A DNA stretch of 64,000 nucleotides from an uncultured Bacteroidota bacterium (GCA_963809695.1 CAWEKI010000001.1:21018-85017), one strand, 5' to 3'; positions 12,106 to 61,709 are shown, numbered from the stretch's first letter. Notes: generated by a model not told the origin, from the sequence alone. Made by a program: numbers and translations.

Positions 12106-12137
12106 GAGGGGAGACGCAACACGTCTCCCCTTTTCTA
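12106..12137 (+). terminator. rho-independent terminator after the OMP array
   Basis: gaggggagacg-caaca-cgtctcccc hairpin followed by ttttct. Confidence 0.55.
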
Positions 12138-12193: not shown

Positions 12194-13186
12194 ATGTTGA
12201 CGCTTTGCCTTAGTGCCAGCTTGCTTTTTGCGCAAGGTGTCGAGGGGGACAGCGCCGAGGGAGCCCCCTGTGTTTTGCGTTTTGGGGGGGATTGTCTCCT
12301 TGCCGGTCACTATGAGGAGGCAGTGGGCGAAAAGGGGGATTGGGCGTTCTCCGGTTTTGATCTCCTCAGCACGGCAGACCTCTCCGTGGTGAACCTTGAA
12401 TGTCCGGTCACTGCACGGGGAGAAAAGGTCAAGAAGCCGTTCAATTTCAGAATGAATCCCGCCTTCTTGAGCGCCCTTACCGGAGCCGGAATTGACGTTG
12501 CAAGCATTGCCAACAACCATATCTTCGACTACGGGAAGCAAGGACTTTTCGACACAATTTCGTATCTTGATTCTGTAGGGATCTGGCACGTCGGAGCAGG
12601 GCGGACTCAGGAGGAAGCGGCAACGCCCGTCATTGTGCAGGCCGGGCAACGGCGCATTGGCATCCAGGGCTACTATGGAGGGGGAGAGGCACCGGCGGCA
12701 GCCGGACAGAACCCCGGCGTTGTCGCAAGGAGCCTCCCCGTGATTCTTGCTGATATCGACAGGCTTCACAAGCGAGACTCCGTGGACTACGTCGTTGTGA
12801 TCCTCCACTGGGGGACAGAGAAAGCCACAATGCCTGATGACGGCCAGATACAATTCGCCCATGCGCTGATCGACGGAGGCGCTGACGCAGTGATTGGCCA
12901 CCATCCCCATGTGCTTCAGGGAATTGAGCTGTACAAATCAGGAGTCATCGTGTATTCGCTTGGGAATCTGGTTTTCGGGGGTAATTCAAGGGATACTTAC
13001 GACACAGGGCTGTTTGAGATTGCACTGGGGACGCGCTCTGTCAATTATCAGTTCATTCCCATCCGGCTGGAGGGGTGGAAGCTCACGACTCTTTCAGGTC
13101 GCGGAGCTGAGGAAGTGAGGAGCCGTATGGCCGAACGTTCTTCCATCTTTCCTCAAAGCATATTCACCACGAAGGAGACGCGATGA
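12194..13186 (+). CDS. CapA / PGA_cap family metallophosphatase-like protein
   Basis: Short signal peptide; NLECPVT...ANNH(I/V)FDYG...HWGTE..GHHPH metallophosphoesterase-like motifs characteristic of the CapA family. Confidence 0.65.
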   Translation: MLTLCLSASLLFAQGVEGDSAEGAPCVLRFGGDCLLAGHYEEAVGEKGDWAFSGFDLLSTADLSVVNLECPVTARGEKVKKPFNFRMNPAFLSALTGAGIDVASIANNHIFDYGKQGLFDTISYLDSVGIWHVGAGRTQEEAATPVIVQAGQRRIGIQGYYGGGEAPAAAGQNPGVVARSLPVILADIDRLHKRDSVDYVVVILHWGTEKATMPDDGQIQFAHALIDGGADAVIGHHPHVLQGIELYKSGVIVYSLGNLVFGGNSRDTYDTGLFEIALGTRSVNYQFIPIRLEGWKLTTLSGRGAEEVRSRMAERSSIFPQSIFTTKETR

Positions 13187-13782
13187 AATCACGCGGATGT
13201 CTGGTTGCACTGATTATCGTTGGAGTGATCGCCGTCGGTCTGGCCATGTGGGGCATGGGCGTGTATAATTCTTTGGTCGGCCTCGACGAGGGTGTCCGCT
13301 CCGCCTGGAGCCAGGTAGAAAGCCAATACCAGAGAAGGGCGGATCTTATACCCAACCTGGTGAACACCGTCAAAGGGTATGCCCAACAGGAAAAGGACGT
13401 GCTTCTGGGAGTGACAGAGGCGCGTGCACGGGTCGGTCAACTCACGGTGACCAAGGATGTGCTGGAAGACCCTGATGCCTTCTCCAAGTTCCAGGCGGCA
13501 CAGGATCAGCTTTCGGGAGCCCTCTCGCGATTGCTGGCTGTCGCTGAAAATTACCCCAACCTGAAATCGAACGAGAACTTCCTCGCATTGCAAACGCAGT
13601 TGGAAGGGACGGAGAACAGGATCACGGTGGAACGGCAGCGCTATAACCAGACTGTCCAGACATACAACACGACGATCCGGAGATTTCCGGGCTCCCTGAT
13701 CGCCAGCTTCACAGGCTTCCGGGACAAGCAGTATTTCAAAGCCAAGGAAGGTGCTGAGAACGTGCCGGAAGTGAAATTCTGA
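13183..13782 (+). CDS. LemA family protein
   Basis: N-terminal TM helix then YNSLV...W..VESQYQRRADLIPNLV...NYPNLK motifs typical of LemA. Overlaps the capA stop by 4 nt. Confidence 0.8.
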   Translation: MKSRGCLVALIIVGVIAVGLAMWGMGVYNSLVGLDEGVRSAWSQVESQYQRRADLIPNLVNTVKGYAQQEKDVLLGVTEARARVGQLTVTKDVLEDPDAFSKFQAAQDQLSGALSRLLAVAENYPNLKSNENFLALQTQLEGTENRITVERQRYNQTVQTYNTTIRRFPGSLIASFTGFRDKQYFKAKEGAENVPEVKF

Positions 13783-14528
13783 TGCATTCCAGCCGCCGAC
13801 TTCTTGCCGTCACACTGACGGTCCTCATTGTACACGCCCTCGTGCTTGCGCAGGAGCCGGCCGTTCCCACGCTGACGCGGCACGTGACGGATCTGAGCGG
13901 CACGCTGTCGCCACAGCAGGTGGAGTTGCTCGACGCCAAGCTGCGGTCCTTTGAAGACAGCACGTCCAACCAGATCGTGGTGCTCATGATCCCCACGATC
14001 GGTTCGGCATCCCTTGAGGATTTCTCACTGCGGGTGGCCGAGGCAAATCGCATCGGCGTGAAAGGACGGGACAATGGTGCGCTCCTGTTCATCGCCAAAG
14101 ACGACAGGCTGGCGAGGATCGAGGTTGGCTATGGATTGGAAGGCGCTCTTCCGGACATTCTCTCAGGACAGATCATCCGGAGAGAGCTGGGGCCTCATTT
14201 CAAGAACGGCGAATACTACGAGGGGATTGACGCCGCCGTCGATGCCATGATGGCTGCGACGAAGGGGGAGTACAAGGCGGAGAAAAAGGAGAGTTCGCCG
14301 GCCGGCCTGGTGCCATTGCTGATTGTTCTGTTCATCATATTTATGATCGTCCGCAATACATTCCAAGGTCCGCGGGGGCTCTTCGGCGGCAGGCGGTCTT
14401 ACTGGGGAGGCGGTCCTTTCATGGGAGGAGGATTTGGCGGGGGTGGTTTTGGTGGAGGCGGAGGTGGGGGCGGATTCTCAGGTGGCGGCGGGTCCTTTGG
14501 TGGCGGAGGGGCAAGCGGGAGTTGGTAG
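13782..14528 (+). CDS. TPM-domain (YgcG-like) protein with C-terminal TM segment and Gly-rich tail
   Basis: Signal peptide; TPM/phosphatase-like core (VTDLSGTLSPQQ...IVVLMIPT...EVGYGLEG); TM helix; GGGFGGGGFGGGGGGGGFSGGGG tail. A LemA-TPM pair is a conserved arrangement. Confidence 0.7.
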   Translation: MHSSRRLLAVTLTVLIVHALVLAQEPAVPTLTRHVTDLSGTLSPQQVELLDAKLRSFEDSTSNQIVVLMIPTIGSASLEDFSLRVAEANRIGVKGRDNGALLFIAKDDRLARIEVGYGLEGALPDILSGQIIRRELGPHFKNGEYYEGIDAAVDAMMAATKGEYKAEKKESSPAGLVPLLIVLFIIFMIVRNTFQGPRGLFGGRRSYWGGGPFMGGGFGGGGFGGGGGGGGFSGGGGSFGGGGASGSW

Positions 14529-14577: not shown

Positions 14578-17500
14578 ATGAACAATCTGGTGAAATCAGC
14601 GGTACCAGTTTTGACATCCGCGGAAGATCTCCATGCTCTCCTGAAGGCTGGGGATCGTCTCGTGCTGGCGCTTCCGGCGGGGAGCAACCTTCTGCGTTCG
14701 CTCGGCGCGGCGCTCGCCCAGACCGTCCCGCACCCGCAGAAAAGCGCCTTAGTCACGGGAGAATCAGAACCACCAATCTCATCACTTCGCGTCATATCTC
14801 TTTCAGACACGAAGAGCCTGAATGAAGCTCTGACAAGGGTGCGTCGCCATGCCAAGGTACACACCCTTCTCGTGCAGGGGGGGTGCCACTTCGGTGCATG
14901 GGAGAAGAAGCCCGCACATCTGCGCGAGTTCTTCGAAAAGGTCTCCCGGGTGCTTTCACGGTCCCGCAACCGGGCCATCTGGCTGTTGGAGCGGGATCGG
15001 CTCCCTGAGGATGCATGGGCGTGGATAAAAGATGACGTGGAGTTCTTTGCCACTGCACACTCCGCCGGATCCGTGACGCTTCTTCAATTCCTTTCTGCAA
15101 AAGGGATTTTCTCTCCTGAGTTCTTCCTTCCGCGACGGGTCACTCCAGACGGGACTGACTTCAGATTCGAGGAGCCGTCGGTCCCGGCCACCGGGCCGGA
15201 GGGACAGCCGATTGACCTCCTTCAGGAACCATACCGCCGGGCATTTGGAGCAGCGGGAGACGGGATTATCCTGTTCGATCTGAAGGGGACGTACCGCGAG
15301 CCCAATGAACGCGCGTGCGAGATTCTGGGATACCCCGATGCCGACCTCCGGTCGGCGCCGATCCGCAGTCTCGTTGCACCGTCCTCCTACCGGGCCGTCT
15401 TGCGGGCAGTGCTCGTGCTCCGCAGGAAGGGAAGGACCGCATTGGACGTGCTCTGCAGGCGGAAGAGCGGGAGGGAAGTCACGATTGCGGTAAGCGCATC
15501 GAACGCCGGGTATGGGCAAATCATCCTGATACTCCGGGATGTCACTGCCGAAAGGCGGGCGCAGGATGATCTGCGCGAAGAGAGAGTGGCGCTCCGGGCA
15601 CGCCTCGATGCCGTGCCGTACCCGCAAGCGCTGTTTGCGGGGAAAAAACTCGTCTCTGCAAATCAGGCCCTTCGACGGAAGTTTCCCTGGGCGGCGCCGG
15701 ATGAGGCGGCGCCCACGCTGCTTCAATTCTTCGGCAAGCAAAACCAGGACGTTGCACGTGATCTTGCCCGTGTGCTTGATCAGACGGAACCTCCTTTCAC
15801 GGAAAAGCGGAGTATTCGACTGCGAGCCCCCGATGGCGCCAGGATGGATCTGGACCTTACAGTCGATGCGGTCAAGGCCGATGGGAGGACAGAAGCATGC
15901 CTGACGTTCGTGGAGACAACGGATTTCCTGAATGCGGTCAGGCGGCATGAAGACACCGCGCTGAACTTCAAGGGATTGATCGAGAGCAATGCCGTCGCTC
16001 TCGCGGTGATCCGTGACGGTCGCTGCCTCTTTGTCAACCGCGGGTTCCTGGCGGTCCTGGGGCGTTCGACGGCGGATGAACTGATCGGTCAGGAATTTTC
16101 CGCCTCTGTCGCATCGCGCGATCGGAAGAGCGTGTTGCACAAGCTGACTGCGGCAGCGCCCGCGCCGGGTGAGATCCATTCCTTCGAGTTTTCCGCGATG
16201 CGAAAGGATGGTTCGCAAACCAGGATCGATGCGACCTGCGCCTCTGTGGATTACGAGAGGCAGTCCGCGATACTGATGTCTTGCAGAGACGTGGGTGGAA
16301 CGCTCAAGTCCACCGAGGAAGTGCGGCGCCGGTTGGATGACGCGGAAGCCGTGGAGAGGATCGCGGACAGCGTCCGGTATCTCCTGGATCCCGCCGCGGT
16401 GGCAACCACGGCGCTCGACGCCGCCCTGAAGATGCTTGGCTTTGAAGCAGGAGGGATGTATCTTCCCGCCGCGGACAAGACCACTCTTGCCTTTGTGGAC
16501 CATCGGGCCCTGAGCGAGAACGCGCTCAAAGCGATAGGCATCCAGAGCACGCTGGAAGGGGTGACGGGCTTCATCGCGAAAACGCTCGAGCCGCAGGTCC
16601 TGAGCATCCAGAACTATCCTGCCCACCTGCCATACAAGTCGCTGTTTGAAGAGGAGCACTTTGCCACCGTCGTCTATCTGCCCCTGGTTGCCGGTGACGA
16701 GCTCGAGGGAATACTGCTGCTCTGTTCGGCGAAGCGGATTGATGCCGGGGACTTTGGGCGAACGCTCCTTCCGTCCGTGGGGAAAGTGCTCGGCAGCGCG
16801 CTGCGCAATGCGTCGGCCTACCACCTGACCGCCGAGTCCGAGCAGCGCTTCCGTTCAACGTTCGAGGGGATTCCTGACACGGTGTATGTCGCTTCTCCCA
16901 CCGGGGCGTTTCTATTCATTGCGCCTCAGGTGGAAGAGATGTCCGGCTTCAAGGCAAGGGACTTTGAGGGCAACCCGGAACTCTGGAGAAATTCGCTCCA
17001 CCCGGATGACCGGGTGAAATACTCCGAGCGCATCTCGAACCAGCATCTGGGCCTCGAGCGGCACGAGACGTTCTACCGCCTCCTTCCGAAAGGCAAGGCG
17101 GCGTACCGATGGATACGGGACGCGTACCGCTACCTCCGTGACGGAAACGGGACCATCGTTTCGATAGACGGGGTTCTTTCGGATGTGACCGAACGGATGG
17201 AAAAGGGAGCCGGGGTTTCCGGAGAAGCCGGCCTGCCGCAGGATGTTCTCGAGAGCGTACAGGAGGGAGTTCTTGTCCTGGACAAAGATCTCCAGTTCAT
17301 GGTCTGGAACAACGCGATGGTGGAGCTCACAGGCGTGCTGCGGGACGAGGTGATCGGCAGAAAAGCGTCAGAGCTTCCTCCCGGCCATCCCGTGGAAGTC
17401 CTGCGCAAGCTGCTTGACCGCGCGCTGGACGGAGACCAGGTGAGCCAGGACGATCTCTCCTTTGTGCGAGGCGACGAGACCCGGTACATCTGGGGCCGAT

Positions 17501-20500
17501 GTTCGCCGCTTCGGGACGGGAGCGGTGCCATCGTCGGAGTTGCGGGGACAGTCACCGATGTGACCGGAAGGAGAAACCTCGAGCACGAACTGCGCGAATC
17601 AGAAGAGACGTTACGCAACGTGATCGACGGGATGGGCGATGCCCTCATGATTTCGGATCTGCAGGGGAAGATCTGGGAAGTGAACCGGGAGTTTTCCCAC
17701 ATTACCGGCTATCCGCGCGGAGAAGTGTTGAGGATGGAGTTCCCGTATCCGTGGATCGTGGACGAGGAGATGGCAAATTTCGTGGCATGGATCGCCGCCT
17801 TGCGGGAAAAGAAATCGTTGCGCGATTTCGACATGATGTGGAAGCGGAAAGACGGGCATAAAGTCTCGATCAGCCTGAGCACCACGCTGCTGCGGACGGC
17901 AACCGGGGAGCCAATGGCGATGTTGAACCTGGCGCGGGACATCTCCGAGCGCAAGCAGCTTGCCAATGAGTTGTCGGCCAAGAACCGCCAGATCGAGATG
18001 TTGAACCGGATCATCAGCAAGGCGAACACGACGGTGGACTTCGGGACGATATTCGACATTATTGCCGTGGAAGTCCTGAACCTGCTCGCTTACGACCAGA
18101 TCGATGTTACGCTCCTTGCGGACGACGAGCAGAATGTCCGGTTGTTGGCCTGCATGAGTCCCGGGAGGCCTGATATGCCTGTTGGCCAGGTTATCCCGCT
18201 GAGCCGTTCGGTTTCGAAGGTGGCGATTGGCTCAAAAGGTCCTGCCGTCGTGGGGGACATCACTTCCGATCACCGGTTCGCAGCCGATTTGTTCACGCCG
18301 GTCGCGGGGTTGAAATCCCTGATCAGCATTCCAATCGTTCTGAACGATCGTATCCTGGGTGCCTTCAACGTGGCGACCGTTGTGGAGAACGCGTTCAGCG
18401 GGAGCGAGCTTGCCATTTTGCAGCCCATTGCCGACCAGATCGGGGCGTTGATCGACCGCACCCAGTTGTTCCAGCGGGTCAGCGATGACAGCAAGTATAT
18501 CCACACGCTCCTCAACTCCATTGACAGCGTGGTGTTGACGGTGGATCCCGGGCTTCACATACGGGAGGCCAACAAGGCCTGGCGCGAGTTTGCGGTGCTC
18601 CTCGGGCTGGACGAAATGGAGGAAGAATCGTCGATCATCGGGCGGGGGGCGGAGGAAATCCTTCTCGTCCCCGGCCTGTGGGAAGAGATGCACGGCGTCG
18701 TGCCCCGGCTCTTCGAACAGACCCTGGAAAACGTGACCCGGGAATTCAATCTGGAACGGGAAGGCGCCATGCGGACCTTCCAGCTCACCGTGACGCCGAT
18801 GTTGATCGGCGAGAAGGTGACCGGCCTGGTGTTCACGATCACCGATATCACCGAAAGCAAGAAGACCGAAGCGGAGATCAAGCAGCGGAACCGGGAGCTG
18901 CTCGCGCTGAATGCGGTAAACACGTCCATCACCAAATCGCTTAACATGGACGACGTCCTCAGCGTGGCGCTCGAGTCCATCAAGGACATTGCCGGTGCGG
19001 AATTGGTTCTCTGCTACCTGCGCGATGCGCAGCCGGGCAAGCTCCGCCTCGCCCGGTCGGTGGGCCTGCCGGACGACCTTGCGGCCGAAGTCCAGATCCT
19101 GGACGAATCCGCGAGCGCATTCGGGGGGGTCATTCGGCAGCGCCAGCCCCTCCTGATCAATGATCGTCCGTCGCTTGACCAGCGCCTGACCCAGGCCGGG
19201 CGGCGCGTCCTGGAGTCCCTGACAACGCAAAGCTTCATGGCGTTTCCGCTCCTCTCCAAAGAGCGTGTACTCGGAACGCTGGGCGTGGGATTTGGTCACG
19301 GACGTCCGTTCACCGATCAGGAGCAGTCGTTCCTGATGTTGATCGGGAGCCAGCTTGGCGCGGCGATCGAGAATGCACAGCTGTATGCGGAAATCCAGGC
19401 GCAGGTTCAGCGCATCACATCGCTCTACGAACTCGGCAAGGGACTCAGCGGAGCGATTGACACCCGCAGCGTGCTCGAAGTAGTCCATGGTGAGGCTGTA
19501 AAGGCTATTCCTTTTGATCTCTTCACGTATGATCTCTTCCATGAAGCTCCGGAGCGCTTCGAGCGGGTCTTCGCAGTGGGAGCGGACACAGGTGACGCGC
19601 ACAACCATGCGGATCCGGAACTACGCGCGTCCATCCAGAAGGTGGTGATGCAGAGGGCGTCATACATCGGTAACACGGAAGAGAGAGGGTCGATCATGGC
19701 CGTGCCGGTGCTCTCCAAGGAGAAGATCCTCGGAGTCCTCAGCGTCTGCAGGCGACCGGCGCACAGCTACAATGAGACTCACTTGCGTCTCTTGGAAAGT
19801 ATTGCTAATTTGACAGGAATCGCCGTTGATCGGGCTGTCCTCTATGAGGATACCGTGGCAAAGTCGATTGAGATCGAGAACCGCAATAAAGAGCTGGACG
19901 ACTTCACGTATGTAGTCTCGCACGATCTCAAGGAGCCGTTGATCACGATCGAGGGGTACAGCAAGATCGTCCTGAAGGAGTATCAGGAACGGATCGACCA
20001 GGAGGGAAAGGCATATCTCTCGGCGGTCGTTCAGTCCACGGCGAGGATGAAGAGCCTGATCGACGATTTGCTCACGCTCTCGCGTCTGGGACGGCTTGCG
20101 GAAGCCCCCCACGCCGTGTCGGTCAAGGCCATCCTGGCGGATGTTCTTCATGATTTCGAGTTCACGCTCCGCGAGAAGAATGCGGTGGTGGCCGTGCCGG
20201 AGATGCTTCCCGAAGTGATCTACGACGAAACGCAGCTGAGCATGGTCTTCCGGAATCTGATCTCGAATGCGATCAAGTTCAACGAGGGGCCGGAGCCGCG
20301 GGTCCAGATAGGAGTGAAGGACGAGGACAAGGAGTTTGTTTTCTCGGTGGCAGACAACGGCATCGGGATTGAGCCGCAGCATTTTGAGAAGATCTTCGTG
20401 ATCTTCCAGCGGCTGCATCGCAGCGAGGAATACCACGGCACCGGTGCAGGGCTGACGATCGTCAAGAAGATTATTGAACGCCATCACGGAAGAATCTGGG

Positions 20501-20553
20501 TGGAGTCGGCGGTAGGGAAGGGGACGACCTTCTTCTTCACTGTTCCCAAATAG
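14578..20553 (+). CDS. giant (1991 aa) multi-PAS/GAF sensor histidine kinase
   Basis: Several PAS-like segments and at least two GAF-like segments. HisKA H-box FTYVVSHDLKEPL. HATPase_c N/G boxes (NAIKFN..., DNGIGIEPQHFEKIF, GTGAGLTIVKKIIERHHGRIWVES). The N-terminal ~200 aa has no domain I can recognise. Confidence 0.85.
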   Translation: MNNLVKSAVPVLTSAEDLHALLKAGDRLVLALPAGSNLLRSLGAALAQTVPHPQKSALVTGESEPPISSLRVISLSDTKSLNEALTRVRRHAKVHTLLVQGGCHFGAWEKKPAHLREFFEKVSRVLSRSRNRAIWLLERDRLPEDAWAWIKDDVEFFATAHSAGSVTLLQFLSAKGIFSPEFFLPRRVTPDGTDFRFEEPSVPATGPEGQPIDLLQEPYRRAFGAAGDGIILFDLKGTYREPNERACEILGYPDADLRSAPIRSLVAPSSYRAVLRAVLVLRRKGRTALDVLCRRKSGREVTIAVSASNAGYGQIILILRDVTAERRAQDDLREERVALRARLDAVPYPQALFAGKKLVSANQALRRKFPWAAPDEAAPTLLQFFGKQNQDVARDLARVLDQTEPPFTEKRSIRLRAPDGARMDLDLTVDAVKADGRTEACLTFVETTDFLNAVRRHEDTALNFKGLIESNAVALAVIRDGRCLFVNRGFLAVLGRSTADELIGQEFSASVASRDRKSVLHKLTAAAPAPGEIHSFEFSAMRKDGSQTRIDATCASVDYERQSAILMSCRDVGGTLKSTEEVRRRLDDAEAVERIADSVRYLLDPAAVATTALDAALKMLGFEAGGMYLPAADKTTLAFVDHRALSENALKAIGIQSTLEGVTGFIAKTLEPQVLSIQNYPAHLPYKSLFEEEHFATVVYLPLVAGDELEGILLLCSAKRIDAGDFGRTLLPSVGKVLGSALRNASAYHLTAESEQRFRSTFEGIPDTVYVASPTGAFLFIAPQVEEMSGFKARDFEGNPELWRNSLHPDDRVKYSERISNQHLGLERHETFYRLLPKGKAAYRWIRDAYRYLRDGNGTIVSIDGVLSDVTERMEKGAGVSGEAGLPQDVLESVQEGVLVLDKDLQFMVWNNAMVELTGVLRDEVIGRKASELPPGHPVEVLRKLLDRALDGDQVSQDDLSFVRGDETRYIWGRCSPLRDGSGAIVGVAGTVTDVTGRRNLEHELRESEETLRNVIDGMGDALMISDLQGKIWEVNREFSHITGYPRGEVLRMEFPYPWIVDEEMANFVAWIAALREKKSLRDFDMMWKRKDGHKVSISLSTTLLRTATGEPMAMLNLARDISERKQLANELSAKNRQIEMLNRIISKANTTVDFGTIFDIIAVEVLNLLAYDQIDVTLLADDEQNVRLLACMSPGRPDMPVGQVIPLSRSVSKVAIGSKGPAVVGDITSDHRFAADLFTPVAGLKSLISIPIVLNDRILGAFNVATVVENAFSGSELAILQPIADQIGALIDRTQLFQRVSDDSKYIHTLLNSIDSVVLTVDPGLHIREANKAWREFAVLLGLDEMEEESSIIGRGAEEILLVPGLWEEMHGVVPRLFEQTLENVTREFNLEREGAMRTFQLTVTPMLIGEKVTGLVFTITDITESKKTEAEIKQRNRELLALNAVNTSITKSLNMDDVLSVALESIKDIAGAELVLCYLRDAQPGKLRLARSVGLPDDLAAEVQILDESASAFGGVIRQRQPLLINDRPSLDQRLTQAGRRVLESLTTQSFMAFPLLSKERVLGTLGVGFGHGRPFTDQEQSFLMLIGSQLGAAIENAQLYAEIQAQVQRITSLYELGKGLSGAIDTRSVLEVVHGEAVKAIPFDLFTYDLFHEAPERFERVFAVGADTGDAHNHADPELRASIQKVVMQRASYIGNTEERGSIMAVPVLSKEKILGVLSVCRRPAHSYNETHLRLLESIANLTGIAVDRAVLYEDTVAKSIEIENRNKELDDFTYVVSHDLKEPLITIEGYSKIVLKEYQERIDQEGKAYLSAVVQSTARMKSLIDDLLTLSRLGRLAEAPHAVSVKAILADVLHDFEFTLREKNAVVAVPEMLPEVIYDETQLSMVFRNLISNAIKFNEGPEPRVQIGVKDEDKEFVFSVADNGIGIEPQHFEKIFVIFQRLHRSEEYHGTGAGLTIVKKIIERHHGRIWVESAVGKGTTFFFTVPK

Positions 20554-20555
20554 AG

Positions 20556-21236
20556 ATGGATGACCACACTACCATAAAAGTCCTCCTCATCGAGGACAAC
20601 CGGGACTTCGCCAATCTGGTGGAGTTATTTCTCAGGAAGCACGAACCAGATCGGTTTCACGTCCTGTGGAAGGAGAACGGCCAGGAGGCGCTCGCGGAAC
20701 TCGCGACCAATAAGGCGTTCGACGTTATCCTGATGGACTATTTCCTTCCGGGGCAGAATGGCCTGGAAGTGACCCGCGCCATCCAGCAAATGGGAGTGTC
20801 GGTGCCGGTGATCTTCCTCACGGTGAACAAGGATTTCGACCTTGCCGTGGAGGTGATGAAATTGGGAGTGGAGGACTATCTGGTGAAGGAGGAAGTGTCG
20901 ACGCCCGTCCTTCCCAAGACGATCCTGAATGTCATCGAGCGCCGGCAATTGCGTGCGCAACTGACCGCCCTCGAGATCACGCAAAAGCGGCTCGAGGCCA
21001 TTCAGGAAATGGTCATGAAAATCACGCAGGAGATCAGGCTCCCGCTGGACGGCATGCGTTCGGGGGTGGACGCGCTGATCGGGGACCATGAGAACGACCA
21101 TCTCAAGACCTACCTGATCATCATCCGCGACAATTTGATCCGTATCGACAAGAAGATCTCGCAGTTGAAGGAGATGAAGACGGACAAGACGGTCCCGTAT
21201 ATCAGGGATATTCGGATGCTTGATCTCTCGGATTGA
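20556..21236 (+). CDS. response regulator: REC domain fused to a degenerate HisKA/DHp-like helix (His replaced by Gln), no ATPase domain
   Basis: REC motifs (LLIEDN..., DVILMDYFLPGQNGLEV, PVIFLTV). The C-terminus KRLEAIQEMVMKITQEIRLPLDGMRS aligns to the HisKA H-box (aHEiRnPLtaI) with Q in place of the phospho-accepting His. Starts 3 nt after the kinase stop. Confidence 0.7.
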   Translation: MDDHTTIKVLLIEDNRDFANLVELFLRKHEPDRFHVLWKENGQEALAELATNKAFDVILMDYFLPGQNGLEVTRAIQQMGVSVPVIFLTVNKDFDLAVEVMKLGVEDYLVKEEVSTPVLPKTILNVIERRQLRAQLTALEITQKRLEAIQEMVMKITQEIRLPLDGMRSGVDALIGDHENDHLKTYLIIIRDNLIRIDKKISQLKEMKTDKTVPYIRDIRMLDLSD

Positions 21237-21246
21237 TGCCACCGGC

Positions 21247-22107
21247 ATGAACTTCACCATCGCTCTTGCTCAGATCGATCCCGTGCTCGGGGATCTGGCG
21301 CGGAACATTGACAAGCACCTGGAATTTGTCGAGAAGGCGCGCGCGGCCGGTGCCGCACTCGTGCTCTTTCCAGAACTCAGTCTGTCGGGGTACTCGGTGC
21401 GAGACCTGCACTGGGACCTTGCCGTGAATGTCCGGAAGCTTCCGTCGGTGTTCGATCCGCTCCTGAAAGCAAGTCACGGCCTTTTGATCCTTGCCGGGGG
21501 AGTGGAGGAAGGCCCATCGTATGCCCTTCATAATGCCGCGTTTCTCTTTGAAGACGGGAACGTGCGCACCGTCCATCGCAAGGCGTATCCTCCTACCTAC
21601 GGGATGTTTGAGGAGCTCCGGTATTTCAGCCCCGGTTCTTCCGTACGGGCATTTGACACATCCCTGGGCCGGATCGGCGTTCTGATCTGTGAAGATCTCT
21701 GGCATCCGTCCTTGCCTTACATCCTTGCGCAGGACGGGGCGGAGTTGATCGCCACGCTTGTTGCAAGTCCCACGCGTGTCACCGGCGCGGAGGAGCGGCT
21801 CCAGATGGCCTCTTTGAACACCGAGAACCACAAGGCATACGCTCGGCTGCTGTCAACGTACATCGCCTTCTGCAACAGGGTGGGATACGAAGACGGGGTG
21901 AACTTCTGGGGAGGGTCGGAAGTGGTTGGCCCGGGGGGCAGTGTCATCGTGTCGGCACCTCTCTTTGACGAGAACCTGATCCTTGCACGCATTGAGGAGG
22001 AGGAGATCAGGCGTGCCCGGCGTCTGTCGAGGCATTTTCTGGACGAGAACCCGGATCTGGTTATGCGGGAGTTGGAAAGGATTAGGAAAAGGCGAGAGGA
22101 GCGCTAG
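21247..22107 (+). CDS. carbon-nitrogen hydrolase (nitrilase superfamily) protein
   Basis: E-K-C triad context: LVLFPELSLSGY, HRKAYPP, GVLICEDLWH. ATG at 21247 lies just after the response-regulator stop; the ORF-track start at 21220 overlaps. Confidence 0.75.
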   Translation: MNFTIALAQIDPVLGDLARNIDKHLEFVEKARAAGAALVLFPELSLSGYSVRDLHWDLAVNVRKLPSVFDPLLKASHGLLILAGGVEEGPSYALHNAAFLFEDGNVRTVHRKAYPPTYGMFEELRYFSPGSSVRAFDTSLGRIGVLICEDLWHPSLPYILAQDGAELIATLVASPTRVTGAEERLQMASLNTENHKAYARLLSTYIAFCNRVGYEDGVNFWGGSEVVGPGGSVIVSAPLFDENLILARIEEEEIRRARRLSRHFLDENPDLVMRELERIRKRREER

Positions 22108-22240: not shown

Positions 22241-22313
22241 GGGCGCGTAGCTCAGGGGTAGAGCATCTGCCTTTTAAGCAGAGGGTCGTTGGTTCGAAGC
22301 CAACCGCGCTCAC
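22241..22313 (+). tRNA. tRNA-Lys (anticodon UUU)
   Basis: Cloverleaf folds by eye: acceptor GGGCGCG/CGCGCTC, D-arm GCTC..GAGC, anticodon stem TCTGC/GCAGA with loop CTTTTAA, T-arm GTTGG-TTCGAAG-CCAAC. Confidence 0.85.
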
Positions 22314-22598: not shown

Positions 22599-22961
22599 TT
22601 AATGCGAGAGGCGCAGAAGACTCTCTGGATCCGGCACAACTACTCCGCCATAGCGACCCTGGAAAACGTGCCCGCTTCTGTTCAGGCGTCTGTTGAGCCA
22701 CTGGGCATACGACTGGGTCACCTTCTTCATGAAACGTGAGATCGCATACGGCTCATGCTGCTGCACAATCAAATGAACATGATTGGGCATGAGCGAGTGG
22801 ACCAGCAGAGAGACAGCGATCGCCTTTTGTGCATCCAGCAGGAACTCCATGTACCGATCATACTCGCGACTGCAGTGAAAGAGTTGACCGCGGTTGACGC
22901 CCCGGTTGAAGGCGTGGACGATGATATTTGGAACGACAAGATAATCTCTGTTGCTTCGCAT
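22599..22961 (-). CDS. RAYT / IS200-like Y1 (HUH) transposase (REP-associated tyrosine transposase-like), 120 aa
   Basis: HUH motif PNHVHLIVQQ and catalytic-Tyr motif HVFQGRY (WQxR[Y/F] type, ~43 aa after HUH as in E. coli YafM-type RAYTs). N-terminal NIIVHAFNRGVNRGQLF. The ORF track runs the frame on to 23996 only because no stop occurs; ATG is at 22961. Confidence 0.65.
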   Translation of the reverse strand: MRSNRDYLVVPNIIVHAFNRGVNRGQLFHCSREYDRYMEFLLDAQKAIAVSLLVHSLMPNHVHLIVQQHEPYAISRFMKKVTQSYAQWLNRRLNRSGHVFQGRYGGVVVPDPESLLRLSH

Positions 22962-23056
22962 GGTGGCTATCTCCTTCTCGTTAGACTGCCCATATAGATA
23001 TACAACGGACGAGGCGTTTTTTCGAACAGGAATGAAGAAAAAGTCGTCGTCGTCTT

Positions 23057-23116
23057 TGGGGTCAGACCGGGGTCTGACCCTGGTCTGGCCCTGACCTGTC
23101 CCTGGTCTGACCCTCG
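23057..23116 (+). repeat. REP-like palindromic repeat cluster (right)
   Basis: ggggtcagaccggggtctgaccctggtctggccctgacctgtccctggtctgaccct; gggtcagacc/ggtctgaccc is a perfect hairpin; same family as 22329-22370. Confidence 0.6.
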
Positions 23117-23231
23117 TGGATGAAGGTAGAAAGTGCCATCCCTTGCGAAAAGCATTGGTTTTCGATATCTTGCTTCCTCCATCGCGTGATTTGCAGCAGC
23201 GGATCCCACTCCCAGCCGGAGGTACCCAACT

Positions 23232-25112
23232 GTGCATCTCGAGCTCATCGATTGGATCATTGTCGCGGTCTCTTTGATCGTTTGTTTCTTTCCAGCGCTT
23301 TTCTTTGGAAAGCGTGCGGGGAAGAACACCACCGAGTTCTTCGCTTCCGGTCGATCGGTCCCCTGGTGGCTCGCCGGCGTCTCCATGGTAGCCACGACGT
23401 TCAGCAGCGACACGCCAAACCTCGTGACGGATATCGTGAGACGCAACGGGGTAGCGGGCAACTGGGTCTGGTGGGCATTTGTGCTGACAGGTGTTGCGAC
23501 CGTCTTCTTCTATGCCCGCCTCTGGCGAAGGTCGGGCGTGATGACCGACCTTGAGTTCTATGAGATCCGCTATTCGGGCAAGGCCGCCAGCTTCGTCCGC
23601 GGCTTTCGCTCCGTCTATCTCGGACTCTTCTTTAACTGCATGATCATGGCCTCGGTGAACCTGGCCGCCTGCAAGATTGCGGGGGTGCTCTTTGGGCTGG
23701 ATCGATGGCAGACGCTTCTGTTTGTCGGAGTCCTGAACGTGGTCTTTGCCACCCACTCCGGCCTCTGGGGCGTGCTGGTGATCGACATGGTCCAGTTCGT
23801 TATCAAAATGACGGCGGTGATCGCGGCGGCCTATTTCGCGGTGAAACTTCCGCAGATCGGGGGGCTGACGGGCCTGGTGGACAAGCTCTCTGCACTTCCC
23901 GGACCGGGCGGATTGAATTACCTGAATATGCTCCCTGATTTTACCAACAATTGGGATCTTGCCGTCGCTGTATTCGTCATGCCAATCGCCGTGCAATGGT
24001 GGGCCGTCTGGTATCCCGGCGCGGAGCCGGGAGGAGGTAGTTACATCGCGCAGCGGATGCTGGCATCAAAGTCTGAAAAAGACTCGCTCGGTGCCGTCCT
24101 CTTCTTCAACATTGCTCATTACGTTCTGCGTCCCTGGCCCTGGATTCTTGTGGGGCTCTGCTCGCTGATCATTTACCCGCAACTCTCGGATATCCAGGCG
24201 GCATTTCCTCATCTCGACCCGACACTCATCGGCCATGATACCGCCTACCCGGCCATGCTCAAGTTTCTTCCGGTCGGGTTCATCGGCCTGATGGTCGGCG
24301 GCCTCATCGCTGCAAATTCTTCGACCATCCTGACTCATCTGAACTGGGGTGCGTCCTATCTGGTGCATGATTTTTACAGGCGATTCTGGAAGAAGAATGA
24401 AACGGAAAAACATTACGTCATGGCGGGCAGATTGGTGACCGTAGGGCTCTTCTTCTGCGCATCAGGGACGGTCTACCTGCTTGACACCGCGAAGGACACG
24501 TTCGATATCATTCTCCAGGTAGGCGCCGGGACCGGTCTGCTCTACCTCGTGCGATGGTTCTGGTGGCGCGTGAATGCCTGGGCAGAAGTGGTCGCAATGC
24601 TCTCTTCGTTTGCCGTCTCCGTGCTGATCCTCATCCTCAATAAGAATGGAGCCGGGATCAGCAGCCATAGCGCACTGCTCATCACGATTGCGTGCACGAC
24701 GATCTGCTGGGTAAGCGTGACGTTATGGGGCCCTCAGACCGACCGTCAGGTGTTGATCGACTTCTATAAGAAAGTGCGCCCCTTTGGCCCCGGTTGGACG
24801 CGCATCCGCAAAGAAGCCGGCATTTCCGTCAAAGATGCCGAGACGGGGGGACAGAATATCCCGCTCGCGCTTCTCGGTTGGTTTGCGGGGTGTGCGGTCA
24901 TTTGGTCAGCACTCTTCACTGTGGGGAACTTCCTGTACGGGCGCACGGGTATGGCCCTGCTGTTGCTCGGCGTTTTTATCGTAACCGGTCTGGTCCTTCT
25001 GTATGTGATCAACAGGGTCTGGGCGGACAGCACGATCTACGCCGCTGACCAGGCCAGACGCGAGAAACTCGAGTCTGGAGAAAAGGCCAACGGCAGCAGC
25101 GAGCCCGATTAG
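23232..25112 (+). CDS. sodium:solute symporter family (SSF) transporter
   Basis: 626 aa. Many TM helices; SSF signature region GRSVPWWLAGVSMVATTFSSDTPNLVTD. GTG start. Confidence 0.8.
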   Translation: MHLELIDWIIVAVSLIVCFFPALFFGKRAGKNTTEFFASGRSVPWWLAGVSMVATTFSSDTPNLVTDIVRRNGVAGNWVWWAFVLTGVATVFFYARLWRRSGVMTDLEFYEIRYSGKAASFVRGFRSVYLGLFFNCMIMASVNLAACKIAGVLFGLDRWQTLLFVGVLNVVFATHSGLWGVLVIDMVQFVIKMTAVIAAAYFAVKLPQIGGLTGLVDKLSALPGPGGLNYLNMLPDFTNNWDLAVAVFVMPIAVQWWAVWYPGAEPGGGSYIAQRMLASKSEKDSLGAVLFFNIAHYVLRPWPWILVGLCSLIIYPQLSDIQAAFPHLDPTLIGHDTAYPAMLKFLPVGFIGLMVGGLIAANSSTILTHLNWGASYLVHDFYRRFWKKNETEKHYVMAGRLVTVGLFFCASGTVYLLDTAKDTFDIILQVGAGTGLLYLVRWFWWRVNAWAEVVAMLSSFAVSVLILILNKNGAGISSHSALLITIACTTICWVSVTLWGPQTDRQVLIDFYKKVRPFGPGWTRIRKEAGISVKDAETGGQNIPLALLGWFAGCAVIWSALFTVGNFLYGRTGMALLLLGVFIVTGLVLLYVINRVWADSTIYAADQARREKLESGEKANGSSEPD

Positions 25113-27420: not shown

Positions 27421-27503
27421 GCGGAAGTGGCGAAATTGGCAGACGCACCATCTTGAGGGGGTGGCGCCCAAAAGGCATGCGGGTTCAAGTCCCGCCTTCC
27501 GCA
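27421..27503 (+). tRNA. tRNA-Leu (anticodon GAG), type II with long variable arm
   Basis: Acceptor GCGGAAG/CTTCCGC, anticodon stem CCATC/GGTGG with loop TTGAGGG, long variable arm, T-arm GCGGG-TTCAAGT-CCCGC. Confidence 0.85.
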
Positions 27504-27850
27504 CGAAAACGACCTCTCTAACCCCTTGTCAATCAAGGGGTTATTTGTTTTTCTCCCAGAAGGCGGGACTCTCTATGCGCCCCTGGTCCTGCCTCCGCAC
27601 GTGTCGGATCATCCAATCATTTCTCCGTCTAGGTCCTTTTCGTTCCCGCCATTCCTTCGTTGGGTCTTTGCTCCATGGGTGAGGGAAGGGAGACATCCGG
27701 TACGGCTCAACCAGTATGCTCGAGTGATTGCAGTAACGCCGGATCCCTGTCCACCTGTTACATGGCAGCCTCGGGCGACATGTTCATCGGCAGCGGGAGG
27801 TGATCGCTCGTAGGGCATCCTTGGAAAAGGTTCTGCACCGATACGAGCGA
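27481..27850 (+). repeat. tRNA-Leu 3'-end + terminator + ~350-bp flank module (copy A1)
   Basis: Diverged copies at 61684-62060 (A2), 46310-46410 (partial A3) and 62232-62300 (tRNA-3'/terminator-like). Shared motifs: ttcaagtcccgccttccgca, aaccccttgtcaatcaaggggttatttgttt, ctgtccacctgttacatgg, gctcgtagggcatcc. Confidence 0.6.
27520..27552 (+). terminator. rho-independent terminator after tRNA-Leu
   Basis: aacccctt-gtcaatc-aaggggtt hairpin followed by atttgttttt. Confidence 0.6.
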
Positions 27851-28514
27851 CGGCCGGGGATGATTGGGAACACGGGGTTGCTTCTATATCCCTAAGCGCT
27901 GGTCCTTATGTGGATAATGCCGACGTAGGGCCTCATCCTTGGTGCCTAAAGGCCAACGCAGCGTGGGTTGGCGGTCCATATCTCACATTTGCGGGTCCTA
28001 TTCCTGAAGAAGCTTGAACACCCCGCGTGCAAAGGCGCATCGCGTCGTTCCCTGGAGTATCTCCGCTTCTGCCCGGTAGGCATTACCATGCTTGTCTACG
28101 AACCAAGCGTTGACCGTGAGCGGTGTGAGTAGGGGTGTCGTGACGAAATAGCGAACATCCAACCTGCCCGTCAAAGGGTTGCCGCCGTACAGATCATGCA
28201 ACAGTCACACCATGGCGCTATCCAGGATTGTTGCCACGATCCCTCCCAGAGCGATGCCTTCATATCCTTTGAAGCGTTTGTCAATCGTAACCATGGTGGG
28301 CGCGGGTCTACGTGTGTTCGGGGTCTTTCTTGACCCCCGATTCTGCCGATTCATTCTCCAATTCCGCACCTGCACGACGTTTGCCTCTTTTCTCCCATTC
28401 CATTACCTTGGTGTACTTGCCTCGCCAAATGGCCCTATACATGATGGCCGCGCTGATCAACGGTCCAGCCGGTTCGTTGTAGCTGTTGCAGGCGAGAATA
28501 TAAGGAAAATCAGG

Positions 28515-30575
28515 ATGGACGTGACTCAACCAGGCGAATCAAAAGGCTCTCTCCCAGTCGTAAGTGATGACTTGTCGGCACGCAAGAAGGATCTGACCGG
28601 AGAAGACGAAAGGTCGACTGGATTGGAGGGGAGCCTGGAGGCGCGGCTGGAGTTTGAGATGTTGCTCACCGATCTTTCTGCCCGCTTTGTGAATATCCCC
28701 TCTGAGCGTATCGACAGTGAGATTGAGGATGCCGAGCGTCGCATTTGCGAATTCCTTGCCATTGATGTTGCGACGCTTTGGCAGTGGGAGGAAGTTGCGT
28801 CGGGTGCCTTCGCGTTGACCCACCTCTTCAACGCCAATGGAGATCAGGCCCCGCCAGAACGCAGGATTGATGCGATATATCCCTGGGCCCGGCAACAAAT
28901 GCTGCTCGGCCGCGTGGTTGCTTTTTCGTCTCCAAACGATCTGCCGCCCGAGGCAGCCCGCGACCGCGAATCCCTCCAACGTTTCGGCATCAAGTCAGGT
29001 TTGATACTTCCTCTCTCGGTAGGGGGTGGAGCGACCATCGGGATCTTCGGTCTTGAAACAGTGCGAGCGGAGCGTGACTGGCCGGACGATTTGAAAAAGC
29101 GGTTGCAGTTAGTTGCACAGGTCTTTGCTAATGCCCTGGCGCGAAAGCGCGCAGATCAGGCGTTGATTGACAGTGGCGAGCAATTGGCTCTGGCTGCCGA
29201 GGCAGGGGAAGTCGGCATCTGGGTGCGAGATTATACTCACAACCGAATCTTGGGATCGGAAAAATGGCATCGACTGTTCGGGTTTCCCCCTGGTTCCGAG
29301 GTGAGTCTCGACGATTTTATGCAGCGGATTCACGCAGATGACCATGAACAGGTGGAGCGGGCGATTCTACGCACTATGAAGGAGCGCGTTGATTATGCAG
29401 CAGAATTCCGCCTGGTTCTACCCGATGGAAGGATGCGTTGGATCATGTCCCGTGGGCGGATTCAGGAGGCCGCAAATGGGAAACCGCCCCGTATGTTGGG
29501 AGCAGCAATTGACATCACCGAACGCAAACTGTTGGAGGGACAGCTCATTGATCACCTCCAAGAGATCGAGGAGCTCAAGCAGCGCGTCGAACAAGAGAAC
29601 ACCTATCTGCAGGAAGAGATCGGGCTTCTGGTTGAACACGCGGATATTGTGGGGAAGAGTGCAGCTATCAAGCAGGTTCTCGTTCGGGCAAGCCAGGTGG
29701 CCGGGACAGATGCGACGGTCCTCCTGATGGGCGAGACCGGTACGGGAAAAGAACTACTCGCGAGGGCGATCCACAAGATGAGCCGCCGGAAAGAACGCAC
29801 CCTGGTGACAGTTAACTGCGCCTCGCTACCAGCCACACTGATCGAAAGCGAACTCTTTGGCCGTGAAAAGGGAGCCTACACGGATGCACTGACGAAAATG
29901 GTTGGGAGGTTCGAGCTTGCAGACGGGTCAACGCTTTTTCTCGATGAGATTGGCGAAGTTCCTCTTGAGGTACAGTCCAAGCTCCTGCGCGTCCTCGAGG
30001 AAGGACAGTTTGAACGATTGGGCTCCACAAAGACACTGCATGCGAACGTCCGCATCATTGCTGCCACAAACCGGGATCTCGGGCGGTTTGTGCAGGAAGG
30101 CAAATTTCGGCAAGACCTTTACTACAGGTTGAATGTTTTCCCCCTTGTCGTCCCACCGCTCCGCGAACGGCCGGAGGATATCCCGCTTCTGGTCTGGACC
30201 TTTGTCAGAGAGTTTGAGATGAAGATTGGCAAGCGGATCGATCGCATTTCCAGCAAGTCCATGGATTCCATGCAACGTTACCCCTGGCCGGGCAATGTCA
30301 GGGAATTGAGGAATATGATCGAACACGGGATGATTGTGAGCACCGGTAACACCCTCACGGTGAACTTGCCTCAAGATGACCTTTCAGGAAAAAACAAAGC
30401 TTCAGACCTTGACAGTATTGAACGAAGTCATATACTCAAGGTTCTGACAGGGTCCGGCTGGCGTATCGGCGGCAAAAGCGGGGCGGCAGAGGTCTTGGGA
30501 CTGCAAAGAACTACACTTCAGTCGCTGATGAAAAGACTCGGAATCAAACGTCCCCTCCCCGGGGGACGGCAATAA
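28515..30575 (+). CDS. sigma54-dependent transcriptional activator (enhancer-binding protein) with N-terminal GAF/PAS sensory domains
   Basis: AAA+ sigma54-interaction domain (GETGTGKE, ESELFGREKGAYT, GAFT-equivalent region). C-terminal Fis-type HTH. ATG 28515 chosen by colinearity with the paralog at 46943. Confidence 0.85.
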   Translation: MDVTQPGESKGSLPVVSDDLSARKKDLTGEDERSTGLEGSLEARLEFEMLLTDLSARFVNIPSERIDSEIEDAERRICEFLAIDVATLWQWEEVASGAFALTHLFNANGDQAPPERRIDAIYPWARQQMLLGRVVAFSSPNDLPPEAARDRESLQRFGIKSGLILPLSVGGGATIGIFGLETVRAERDWPDDLKKRLQLVAQVFANALARKRADQALIDSGEQLALAAEAGEVGIWVRDYTHNRILGSEKWHRLFGFPPGSEVSLDDFMQRIHADDHEQVERAILRTMKERVDYAAEFRLVLPDGRMRWIMSRGRIQEAANGKPPRMLGAAIDITERKLLEGQLIDHLQEIEELKQRVEQENTYLQEEIGLLVEHADIVGKSAAIKQVLVRASQVAGTDATVLLMGETGTGKELLARAIHKMSRRKERTLVTVNCASLPATLIESELFGREKGAYTDALTKMVGRFELADGSTLFLDEIGEVPLEVQSKLLRVLEEGQFERLGSTKTLHANVRIIAATNRDLGRFVQEGKFRQDLYYRLNVFPLVVPPLRERPEDIPLLVWTFVREFEMKIGKRIDRISSKSMDSMQRYPWPGNVRELRNMIEHGMIVSTGNTLTVNLPQDDLSGKNKASDLDSIERSHILKVLTGSGWRIGGKSGAAEVLGLQRTTLQSLMKRLGIKRPLPGGRQ

Positions 30576-46670: not shown

Positions 46671-46811
46671 ATAGACATTCCCCATTTTCCAGGAAAACTC
46701 TGTGGGTTTTCCTGAACACCTGGTGGAAGCAGGTTCCTGGAACCATCCTGGAACCTTCCTGGAACGTTCCTGGAACGATCTTGGAGCCACGTGCAAATGG
46801 GGAATGTCCAT
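46671..46811. mobile_element. MITE-like 141-bp element with ~15-bp terminal inverted repeats and 8-bp target-site duplication
   Basis: TIRs atagacattccccattt / aaatggggaatgtccat. Flanked by the direct repeat cgcaactt (46663-46670 and 46812-46819). Interior carries tandem tcctggaac repeats (46728-46780). Confidence 0.45.
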
Positions 46812-46942
46812 CGCAACTTCTTTTGCATCTCAAATGGATTTTGGATAATTTCCTGTTGACGCAATTTCTCGGGCGCCGAATCAGTCCCGGCAGCACCTCG
46901 GTAGCCCTTGCGATACCGACAACCCCATCATCTGAAGCAAGT

Positions 46943-61683: not shown

Positions 61684-61709
61684 ACGGGATTCAAGTCCCG
61701 CCTTCCGCA
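61684..61709 (+). other. fossil tRNA-Leu 3' fragment (T-arm + acceptor 3' strand), part of module copy A2
   Basis: cgggattcaagtcccgccttccgca matches the last ~23 nt of tRNA-Leu(27421-27503). Followed at 61734-61764 by a copy of the same terminator hairpin (aacccctt-gtcaatc-aaggggtt-atttgttt). Preceded by an 18-bp bulged hairpin (61635-61683). Confidence 0.55.

Follow-up and report, generated by a model that had tools for sequence, protein, structure and literature searches.

An Ignavibacteriota response regulator with a receiver, a HisKA-like hairpin and a conserved C-terminal tail, encoded beside a long multi-sensor histidine kinase

In most response regulators the C-terminal domain binds DNA or is an enzyme. 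In LvrB of Leptospira, the prototype of the Rec-controlled histidine kinases, a receiver domain (REC) is followed by a signaling helix, a DHp domain and a CA domain (PMC13269768). Archaeal REC-(PAS)n-HisKA regulators that lack HATPase, such as AF_1472, were catalogued by Galperin et al. (2018; PMC5847659); the archaeal REC-HisKA regulators were predicted to work by dimerization and protein-protein interaction, none having been studied experimentally, and related proteins with HisKA but no HATPase were described as keeping the conserved His (PMC5847659). Here we analyze a histidine kinase, its response regulator and a CN hydrolase encoded in a 64,000-nucleotide stretch of DNA from an uncultured Bacteroidota bacterium (GCA_963809695.1 CAWEKI010000001.1:21018-85017), the whole of which is called the window below:

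14578–20553, + strand: histidine kinase, 1991 residues, stop codon TAG (open reading frame (ORF) with translation and Pfam domains)
20556–21236, + strand: response regulator, 226 residues, stop codon TGA (ORF; the ATG lies 2 nucleotides past the kinase TAG)
21247–22107, + strand: CN hydrolase of the nitrilase superfamily, 286 residues (Pfam, E 4e-36; other possible start, TTG at 21220)

The kinase and regulator form an Ignavibacteriota system in which, as we judge rather likely, a decayed Rec-controlled kinase acts by phosphorylation-dependent protein-protein interaction. Like LvrB, the regulator has REC, a signaling helix and DHp in the same order, the profile of its family matches the LvrB DHp, and coiled-coil formation on phosphorylation is a plausible common switch. 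Unlike LvrB, it has no CA/ATPase domain, its His is not conserved and an 18-residue tail stands where CA would begin; because the ATPase domain is missing and the phospho-acceptor His is not conserved, the regulator cannot be a kinase. It resembles the archaeal AF_1472 type in consisting of a receiver and a HisKA dimerization domain without ATPase, whereas it is bacterial, has no PAS (the archaeal type carries PAS/GAF between REC and HisKA), and belongs to a family that is freed of the His constraint and has a specific conserved tail. DivL, RcsD and RetS are pseudo-kinases or DHp-based modulators, and in them and in RedE, as in this regulator, a HisKA-type module serves something other than autophosphorylation. 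However, these four keep an ATPase-like domain, and most of them lack an N-terminal receiver controlling the bundle. RedE, unlike the regulator, keeps a functional His24 (PMC2755868). The system thus differs from the known classes in being bacterial and His-independent, in its specific invariant tail and in a sequence-orphan inactivated KaiC-like (iKaiC) domain on the kinase, and is not categorically new.

Receiver, linker and DHp-like hairpin of the regulator

The regulator divides into the following segments:

20580–20891, + strand: receiver domain, regulator residues 9–112 (Response_reg, PF00072, E 5e-22, 78.5 bits against a cutoff of 30.2)
20907–21005, + strand: coiled-coil linker helix, regulator residues ~118–150 (AlphaFold helix; conservation)
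21003–21176, + strand: DHp-like helical hairpin, regulator residues 150–207 (HisKA profile positions 3–60; pseudo-H-box TQEIRLPL)
21177–21230, + strand: C-terminal tail KTDKTVPYIRDIRMLDLS, regulator residues 208–225, the most conserved segment

Conservation was counted in an alignment of 81 regulator relatives. The receiver active site is complete, comprising Glu13, Asp14, Asp61 (20736–20738), Thr89 and Lys111, of which Asp61, Thr89 and Lys111 are invariant (81/81) and Glu13 and Asp14 nearly so. The linker keeps an a/d heptad pattern (L132, L136, L139, L146, I149, V153 and I156), and conserved hydrophobic residues at 3–4 heptad spacing run from L132 through L174 and then from Y186 to L204. In the AlphaFold monomer, helices 118–177 and 182–209 form a hairpin with a predicted local distance difference test (pLDDT) score of 79–89, and the heptad conservation would suit the pairing of two such hairpins into a four-helix bundle. 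Gln158 (CAG, 21027–21029) occupies the position of the H-box histidine, both in the Pfam register and in the profile alignment to the kinase ThkA.

Sequence comparison indicates that the C-terminus of the regulator is truly related to HisKA/DHp, as opposed to being a generic coiled coil, because members of the family match HisKA, the family profile finds ThkA and the register is identical throughout. Of 46 non-redundant family members, 32 matched HisKA at E <= 0.05 (best E 2.5e-7), with every other Pfam family matched by at most four members, and about a dozen of the 120 relatives listed have a precomputed PF00512 match. With the family profile, ThkA (3a0r) was matched at E 1.7e-5 and KinB, LvrB and HK853 after it. 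Furthermore, the Pfam, ThkA and cognate kinase comparisons all place the phospho-His at residue 158, H+1 at Glu159 and H+5 at Pro163. A profile search with the C-terminal module alone revealed no new architectures, all matches being fragments of the same family. No ATPase, DNA-binding or enzymatic domain was found in the regulator with Pfam and NCBIfam, there was no match to HATPase_c, and the protein ends 17 residues past helix 2. The first-pass annotation, which had read the gene as REC fused to a HisKA-like helix without an ATPase domain, is therefore borne out, and the domain search across the family places the C-terminus with HisKA and not with ordinary coiled coils.

The alternative that the C-terminus is a generic dimerizing coiled coil, with its HisKA likeness arising by compositional chance, draws on the score of the window regulator itself, which against HisKA (PF00512) reaches E 0.013 with the whole protein and E 0.0013 with the domain alone, at 16–19 bits under a cutoff of 26.9. 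The family profile also matched unrelated helical proteins, namely Swallow (E 8e-4) and Tom1 (E 2.5e-3). Chance likeness would, however, have to account for the predominance of HisKA over every other family among the members, for a register that is the same in three comparisons, for a Pro at H+5 (residue 163) that is kept within a helix in 80/81 relatives, and for a loop position and helix lengths that suit a DHp hairpin, and we regard it as quite improbable.

Conservation of the hairpin and tail, and the proposed mechanism

Across the 81 relatives, position 158 is occupied by Q in 20, G in 17, H in 10, K in 8, N in 7, A in 5, T in 5 and S in 4, and the bearers of His158 are scattered over at least three clades. 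Since this position varies freely, while the corresponding His of the cognate kinase is invariant (His1782, codon 19921–19923, checked at the codon level, in the H-box SHDLKEPL; 26/26 diverse cognate kinases), residue 158 is no phosphotransfer site. The proposal of a pseudo-DHp with a His-to-Gln replacement thus holds insofar as the His is missing in the window; the change is not a specific swap, as the position is unconstrained. A phosphorelay intermediate of the Spo0B or ChpT kind was ruled out, given that the histidine is not conserved.

Around this position, H+1 (residue 159) is Glu in 62/81 and Asp in 9/81, and the Thr/Asn phosphatase motif at H+4 (residue 162) is not kept (L in 20, K in 12, A in 12, S in 9, V in 6, E in 6, T in 4 and D in 4 of 81). 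These residues bear on the idea that the DHp-like bundle serves another receiver, for example the extra receiver of the Ignavibacterium album clade, as a His-independent phosphatase or as a docking sink. HisKA-type proteins do not strictly need the His for phosphatase activity, as reported for RedE H24A, with EnvZ and NtrB cited alongside (PMC2755868). The conserved Glu at H+1 would also fit, as would an extra 148-residue receiver gene at one I. album locus. However, RedE depended on ADP and on its ATPase domain, the latter absent from the regulator, the operon in the window holds no second receiver gene, and the H+4 position is as variable as described above; we consider a phosphatase or sink most unlikely.

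Mean column conservation falls along the regulator in the following order:

tail, residues 208–225: 0.82
linker helix: 0.74
receiver: 0.72
helix 2: 0.68
H-box region: 0.54
end of helix 1 and loop: 0.41

The tail is 18 residues long, with the family consensus KTDKTVxYIKDIRMxDLS, and AlphaFold confidence in it is low (pLDDT 43–51). Selection thus acts on the scaffold and the tail and not on a phosphotransfer site.

The regulator C-terminus aligns in register with the DHp of the cognate kinase in a profile-profile comparison (hhalign), at 14% identity and E 0.013, and an origin of the regulator DHp by recent duplication of the neighboring kinase DHp was ruled out by this weak score. The same comparison bears on the suggestion of the first-pass annotation that the pseudo-DHp heterodimerizes with the kinase DHp. 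In such a scheme the His-less DHp would pair with or cap the kinase DHp in the style of RetS and GacS and exert phosphorylation-dependent feedback on the kinase. The regulator domain is DHp-derived, no partner other than the kinase is always present, and the action of RetS on the GacS DHp offers a precedent, RetS reportedly disrupting the GacS DHp dimer. Yet the two DHp families are only distantly alike, the kinase DHp is very conserved whereas helix 1 and the loop of the regulator are its least conserved parts (0.41–0.54), and the invariance of the tail would be left unexplained. The comparison therefore lends the suggestion no specific support, and we hold a DHp heterodimer to be improbable.

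We favor instead an output by phosphorylation-dependent protein-protein interaction, as opposed to phosphotransfer, DNA binding or catalysis, since the His position is unconstrained, the tail is conserved and no DNA-binding or enzymatic domain was detected. The regulator would descend from a Rec-controlled kinase (REC, signaling helix, DHp and CA) that lost CA and the need for His. Most likely, the kinase phosphorylates Asp61 of the adjoining regulator, as the genes adjoin and the catalytic residues are intact. The regulator presumably dimerizes through its coiled coil and helical bundle, and a phosphorylated receiver may, by analogy with LvrB, alter how the linker coiled coil packs and thereby reposition the bundle and the tail. 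The nearly invariant 18-residue tail would then serve as a binding peptide, for which the CN hydrolase is the leading candidate partner and the kinase itself the second.

Several points weigh against this interpretation. His is present at the H-box position in 10/81 relatives, so that residual phosphotransfer is possible in some lineages; the HisKA score of the window regulator (19 bits) lies under the Pfam gathering threshold; the profile-profile match to the cognate kinase DHp reaches only E 0.013; and the tail is also conserved in clades without an adjoining hydrolase, so that the hydrolase may not be the partner.

Sensor array, catalytic core and N-terminal domain of the kinase

The kinase is organized as follows:

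14605–15192, + strand: predicted inactivated KaiC/RecA-like domain, kinase residues ~10–205 (LPAGSN at the P-loop position, Gln100 at the Walker B position)
15232–19833, + strand: sensor array, kinase residues 219–1752 (Pfam, whole protein and 200-residue fragments)
PAS domains within the array: residues 219–327, 464–572, 756–866, 888–999 and 1011–1127, and a weak one at ~1307–1425 (Pfam)
GAF domains within the array: residues 604–744, ~1150–1293, 1455–1599 and 1642–1752 (Pfam)
19894–20091, + strand: HisKA/DHp, kinase residues 1773–1838 (Pfam, E 1e-10, 41.7 bits, above threshold)
20224–20547, + strand: HATPase_c, kinase residues 1883–1990 (Pfam, E 1e-27, 96.8 bits, above threshold)

The several PAS and GAF domains found with Pfam, together with HisKA and HATPase_c, agree with the earlier description of a multi-PAS/GAF histidine kinase. 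Its length had been called exceptional; 1991 residues is indeed very long, but it is not a one-off, since kinases adjoining relatives of this regulator typically have 1850–2080 residues, and orthologues have 1988–1990. As no hydrophobic segment of transmembrane grade was found in the kinase, the protein is taken to be soluble, and transmembrane sensing was ruled out. We conclude that the kinase is a soluble multi-sensor with an inactivated KaiC/RecA-like domain, five clear PAS domains and one weak one, and four GAF domains, ending in a canonical HisKA/HATPase core whose phospho-acceptor is His1782. In its H-box (19912–19944, SHDLKEPL), H+4 is Glu and not Thr/Asn, and this Glu is invariant across orthologues. 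By the usual HisKA rule, the kinase may lack the canonical HisKA phosphatase motif, in which case the regulator would have to be dephosphorylated by other means.

The first ~200 residues, before the first PAS, had been reported as unassignable. By sequence this stands: kinase residues 1–218 have no Pfam match even at E <= 10, nor do the corresponding regions of 13 relatives, and at the same limit MEDS (PF14417), DUF835 (PF05763) and KaiC (PF06745) matched neither the window domain nor any of the 13. A profile of the domain run against PDB sequences returned only noise. By structure, it does not. AlphaFold with the 13-sequence alignment gave a confident α/β model (pLDDT 86.3, predicted template-modeling (TM) score 0.83), and a Foldseek search with that model found KaiC and FlaH at E ~1e-8 to 1e-7, with probability 1.00 and TM scores of 0.6–0.67, revealing a RecA-like α/β core fold. 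The nucleotide-binding motifs are degraded. A GK[ST] after strand 1, as in the Walker A motif GxxxxGK[ST], occurs in 0/31 family members (LPAGSNLL in the window), and the Walker B position, Gln100 in the window, is Asp in 19/31 and Glu in 6/31 of the relatives, apparently a vestige. On the strength of this model, the N-terminal ~205 residues are assigned to the iKaiC domains, a class already described, as a sequence orphan of that class.

iKaiC modules (MEDS and DUF835) have been listed as sensor or output domains of archaeal two-component proteins, with MEDS as a kinase sensor domain (PMC5847659). Like the iKaiC families (MEDS PF14417, DUF835 PF05763 and divergent KaiC PF06745), the domain described here has a RecA/KaiC-like fold with a P-loop that does not work and stands at the sensor end of a signaling protein; unlike them, it has no detectable sequence match to their Pfam models and has few database relatives. 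Indeed, when 1.84 billion cluster representatives were searched exhaustively, only 16 proteins were returned; 14 belong to the same kinase family, as its N-termini or as fragments of these, and the two others are repetitive and likely spurious. With a hidden Markov model (HMM) of the domain, it was found at the N-terminus of the regulator-adjoining kinase in 36 loci, including the most distant, whose regulator is 50% identical. The domain diverges fast, its identity being 71% where that of the regulator is 89% and ~30% where that of the regulator is 72%. This explains why a word-indexed search with kinase residues 1–217 came back empty; taking that result as a sign of non-coding sequence was rejected as a sensitivity artifact, the exhaustive search and local BLAST/HMM having found the domain.

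Operon, gene neighborhood and candidate partners

Besides the three genes already listed, the probable operon and its borders comprise the following features:

12106–12132, + strand: terminator-like hairpin, an 11-base-pair stem followed by a T-run (consensus scan only)
12194–13186, + strand: PGA_cap (CapA-like) gene, first of the operon (Pfam PF09587, E 3e-72)
13183–13782, + strand: LemA-family gene, overlapping PGA_cap by 4 nucleotides (Pfam PF04011, E 3e-62)
13782–14528, + strand: TPM-domain gene, overlapping LemA by 1 nucleotide (Pfam PF04536, E 2e-37)
22241–22312, + strand: transfer RNA (tRNA) gene at the operon end (Rfam RF00005, 68.8 bits)

The hairpin at 12106–12132 probably ends an upstream transcription unit, with the operon starting after it. 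Given the short overlaps and gaps (49 nucleotides separate the end of the TPM gene from the kinase start), the hairpin before PGA_cap and the tRNA after the hydrolase, the six genes between 12194 and 22107 (PGA_cap, LemA, TPM, kinase, regulator and CN hydrolase) likely form one operon. Beyond the tRNA, an ORF for an IS200-like Y1 transposase lies on the − strand at 22599–23234. This spot is variable: the closest genome (L001) has no transposase there, and other relatives carry an HD_4 (RelA/SpoT-type HD) gene.

The hydrolase could start at ATG 21247, 10 nucleotides past the regulator TGA, or at TTG 21220, overlapping the regulator. Orthologues in two related contigs have 284–286 residues and begin ~10 nucleotides after the regulator, and the start is therefore probably ATG 21247. 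The two genes are tightly coupled with either start. Of the claim that the hydrolase is translationally coupled, the tight linkage is thus upheld, with a 10-nucleotide spacer likelier than an overlap.

The hydrolase matches PF00795 at 125 bits (cutoff 23.2), and its triad Glu43-Lys112-Cys148 is invariant in 63–64 orthologues. Among solved structures, it comes nearest to the glutaminase domains of glutamine-dependent NAD+ synthetases (5kha, E 4e-30, with 3n05 and 4f4h next), and NCBIfam PRK13981 matches through its N-terminal half only (158 bits against a cutoff of 479). The protein thus resembles the NadE glutaminase domain in its best structural and NCBIfam matches and in its intact Glu-Lys-Cys triad, and differs from NadE in standing alone, with 286 residues and no synthetase domain in the same protein. 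Judged from these motifs and matches, it is probably an active stand-alone amidase.

Relatives of the regulator in the database number at least 889, and those that are named all come from Ignavibacteriota or metagenome-assembled genomes (MAGs) labeled 'Bacteroidota'. In a sample of 80 genome loci whose regulators are 50–89% identical to that of the window, all belong to Ignavibacteriota or to MAGs labeled Bacteroidota/Chlorobi, Ignavibacterium album included, and we conclude that the two-component system is specific to the phylum Ignavibacteriota. A kinase core of the cognate type lies directly upstream of the regulator in 75/80 loci, and a CN hydrolase downstream in 63–65/80 (about 80%), mostly overlapping or spaced by tens of nucleotides. 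Upstream of the kinase, PGA_cap occurs in 34 loci, LemA in 39 and TPM in 33. With at least 889 relatives, and with the kinase-regulator-hydrolase order recurring across 80 Ignavibacteriota genomes, the arrangement is more than chance.

I. album MAG L066 (7085–12010) carries a short system with an 826-residue kinase (PAS-PAS-GAF-HisKA-HATPase). There, a 148-residue stand-alone receiver gene stands between the kinase and the regulator, the regulator is followed by a 151-residue TPM-domain gene, a CN hydrolase and an M48 peptidase, and the kinase is separated from the upstream TPM gene by DAHP synthase.

These neighborhoods bear on direct enzyme control, in which the regulator would act allosterically on the CN hydrolase encoded downstream, its phosphorylated or unphosphorylated dimer binding the enzyme through the tail and switching amide hydrolysis, so that the two-component system would govern an enzyme and not transcription. 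In favor are the frequency and closeness with which the hydrolase gene follows the regulator, usually overlapping or after a very short spacer, an enzyme that looks active, with its triad invariant, and a regulator with no other recognizable output. Moreover, the clade with an altered tail, YIKGIKMIDL[NT] (L061, L068, L071, L074, L077 and L080), is the clade without an adjoining hydrolase, a correlation from a single clade and thus phylogenetically confounded. Against it, about 15 loci have no adjoining hydrolase and most of these keep the canonical tail. Where the hydrolase is absent, the regulator is followed in two loci by a gene for glutamate dehydrogenase and in others by one for a class II tRNA synthetase, for BamD or for an unknown protein. 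Furthermore, a TPM gene separates regulator and hydrolase in the I. album clade, and gene order within one phylum may reflect inheritance and not function. On balance, we treat control of the hydrolase as unlikely. The glutamate dehydrogenase genes follow the regulator in two unrelated loci (L042, 10723–12024, and L061, 10841–12199); with the glutaminase-like hydrolase they hint at a link to glutamine/glutamate metabolism, from two cases only. The further step, that the regulator is a phosphorylation-gated adaptor made from a decayed kinase core whose tail switches the co-transcribed glutaminase-like hydrolase on or off, and hence a new kind of two-component output, we consider doubtful.

Elsewhere in the window, a direct repeat of ~345 nucleotides (72.7% identity; 27481–27826 and 61687–62029) lies in regions without long ORFs, its first copy starting at the 3′ end of a tRNA gene (27421–27503); it could be a repeated non-coding element or an integration-site remnant. 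Two paralogous 561-residue genes (42882–44567 and 50793–52478; 73% nucleotide identity over 1.7 kb) encode pyridine-nucleotide disulfide oxidoreductases with a C-terminal rhodanese domain, similar to coenzyme A-disulfide reductase. A sigma-54 activator bearing GAF and PAS sensor domains is encoded upstream of a glycyl radical enzyme resembling pyruvate-formate-lyase (28179–30575, 31223–33643 and 46781–48922), and region 48035–48669, 65% identical to part of the sigma-54 activator, probably belongs to a paralogue.

These findings have no bearing on any long-standing open problem. They provide structure-based evidence for a sequence-orphan iKaiC sensor domain on a bacterial kinase, extending modules described mainly in archaea, and indicate that REC-HisKA regulators without ATPase, so far catalogued only in archaea, also occur in bacteria, here in a His-independent form. 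The partner question is open to bench work, as I. album is cultivable and carries the shorter system. Were the tail to switch the hydrolase, amide or nitrogen metabolism would come under the post-translational control of a giant cytoplasmic PAS/GAF/iKaiC sensor, without a transcription factor. Together, the observations describe a large one-phylum family whose only output appears to be the remnant of a kinase dimerization domain with a short invariant peptide, and thus what may be a natural case of a kinase core reused as a pure interaction module.

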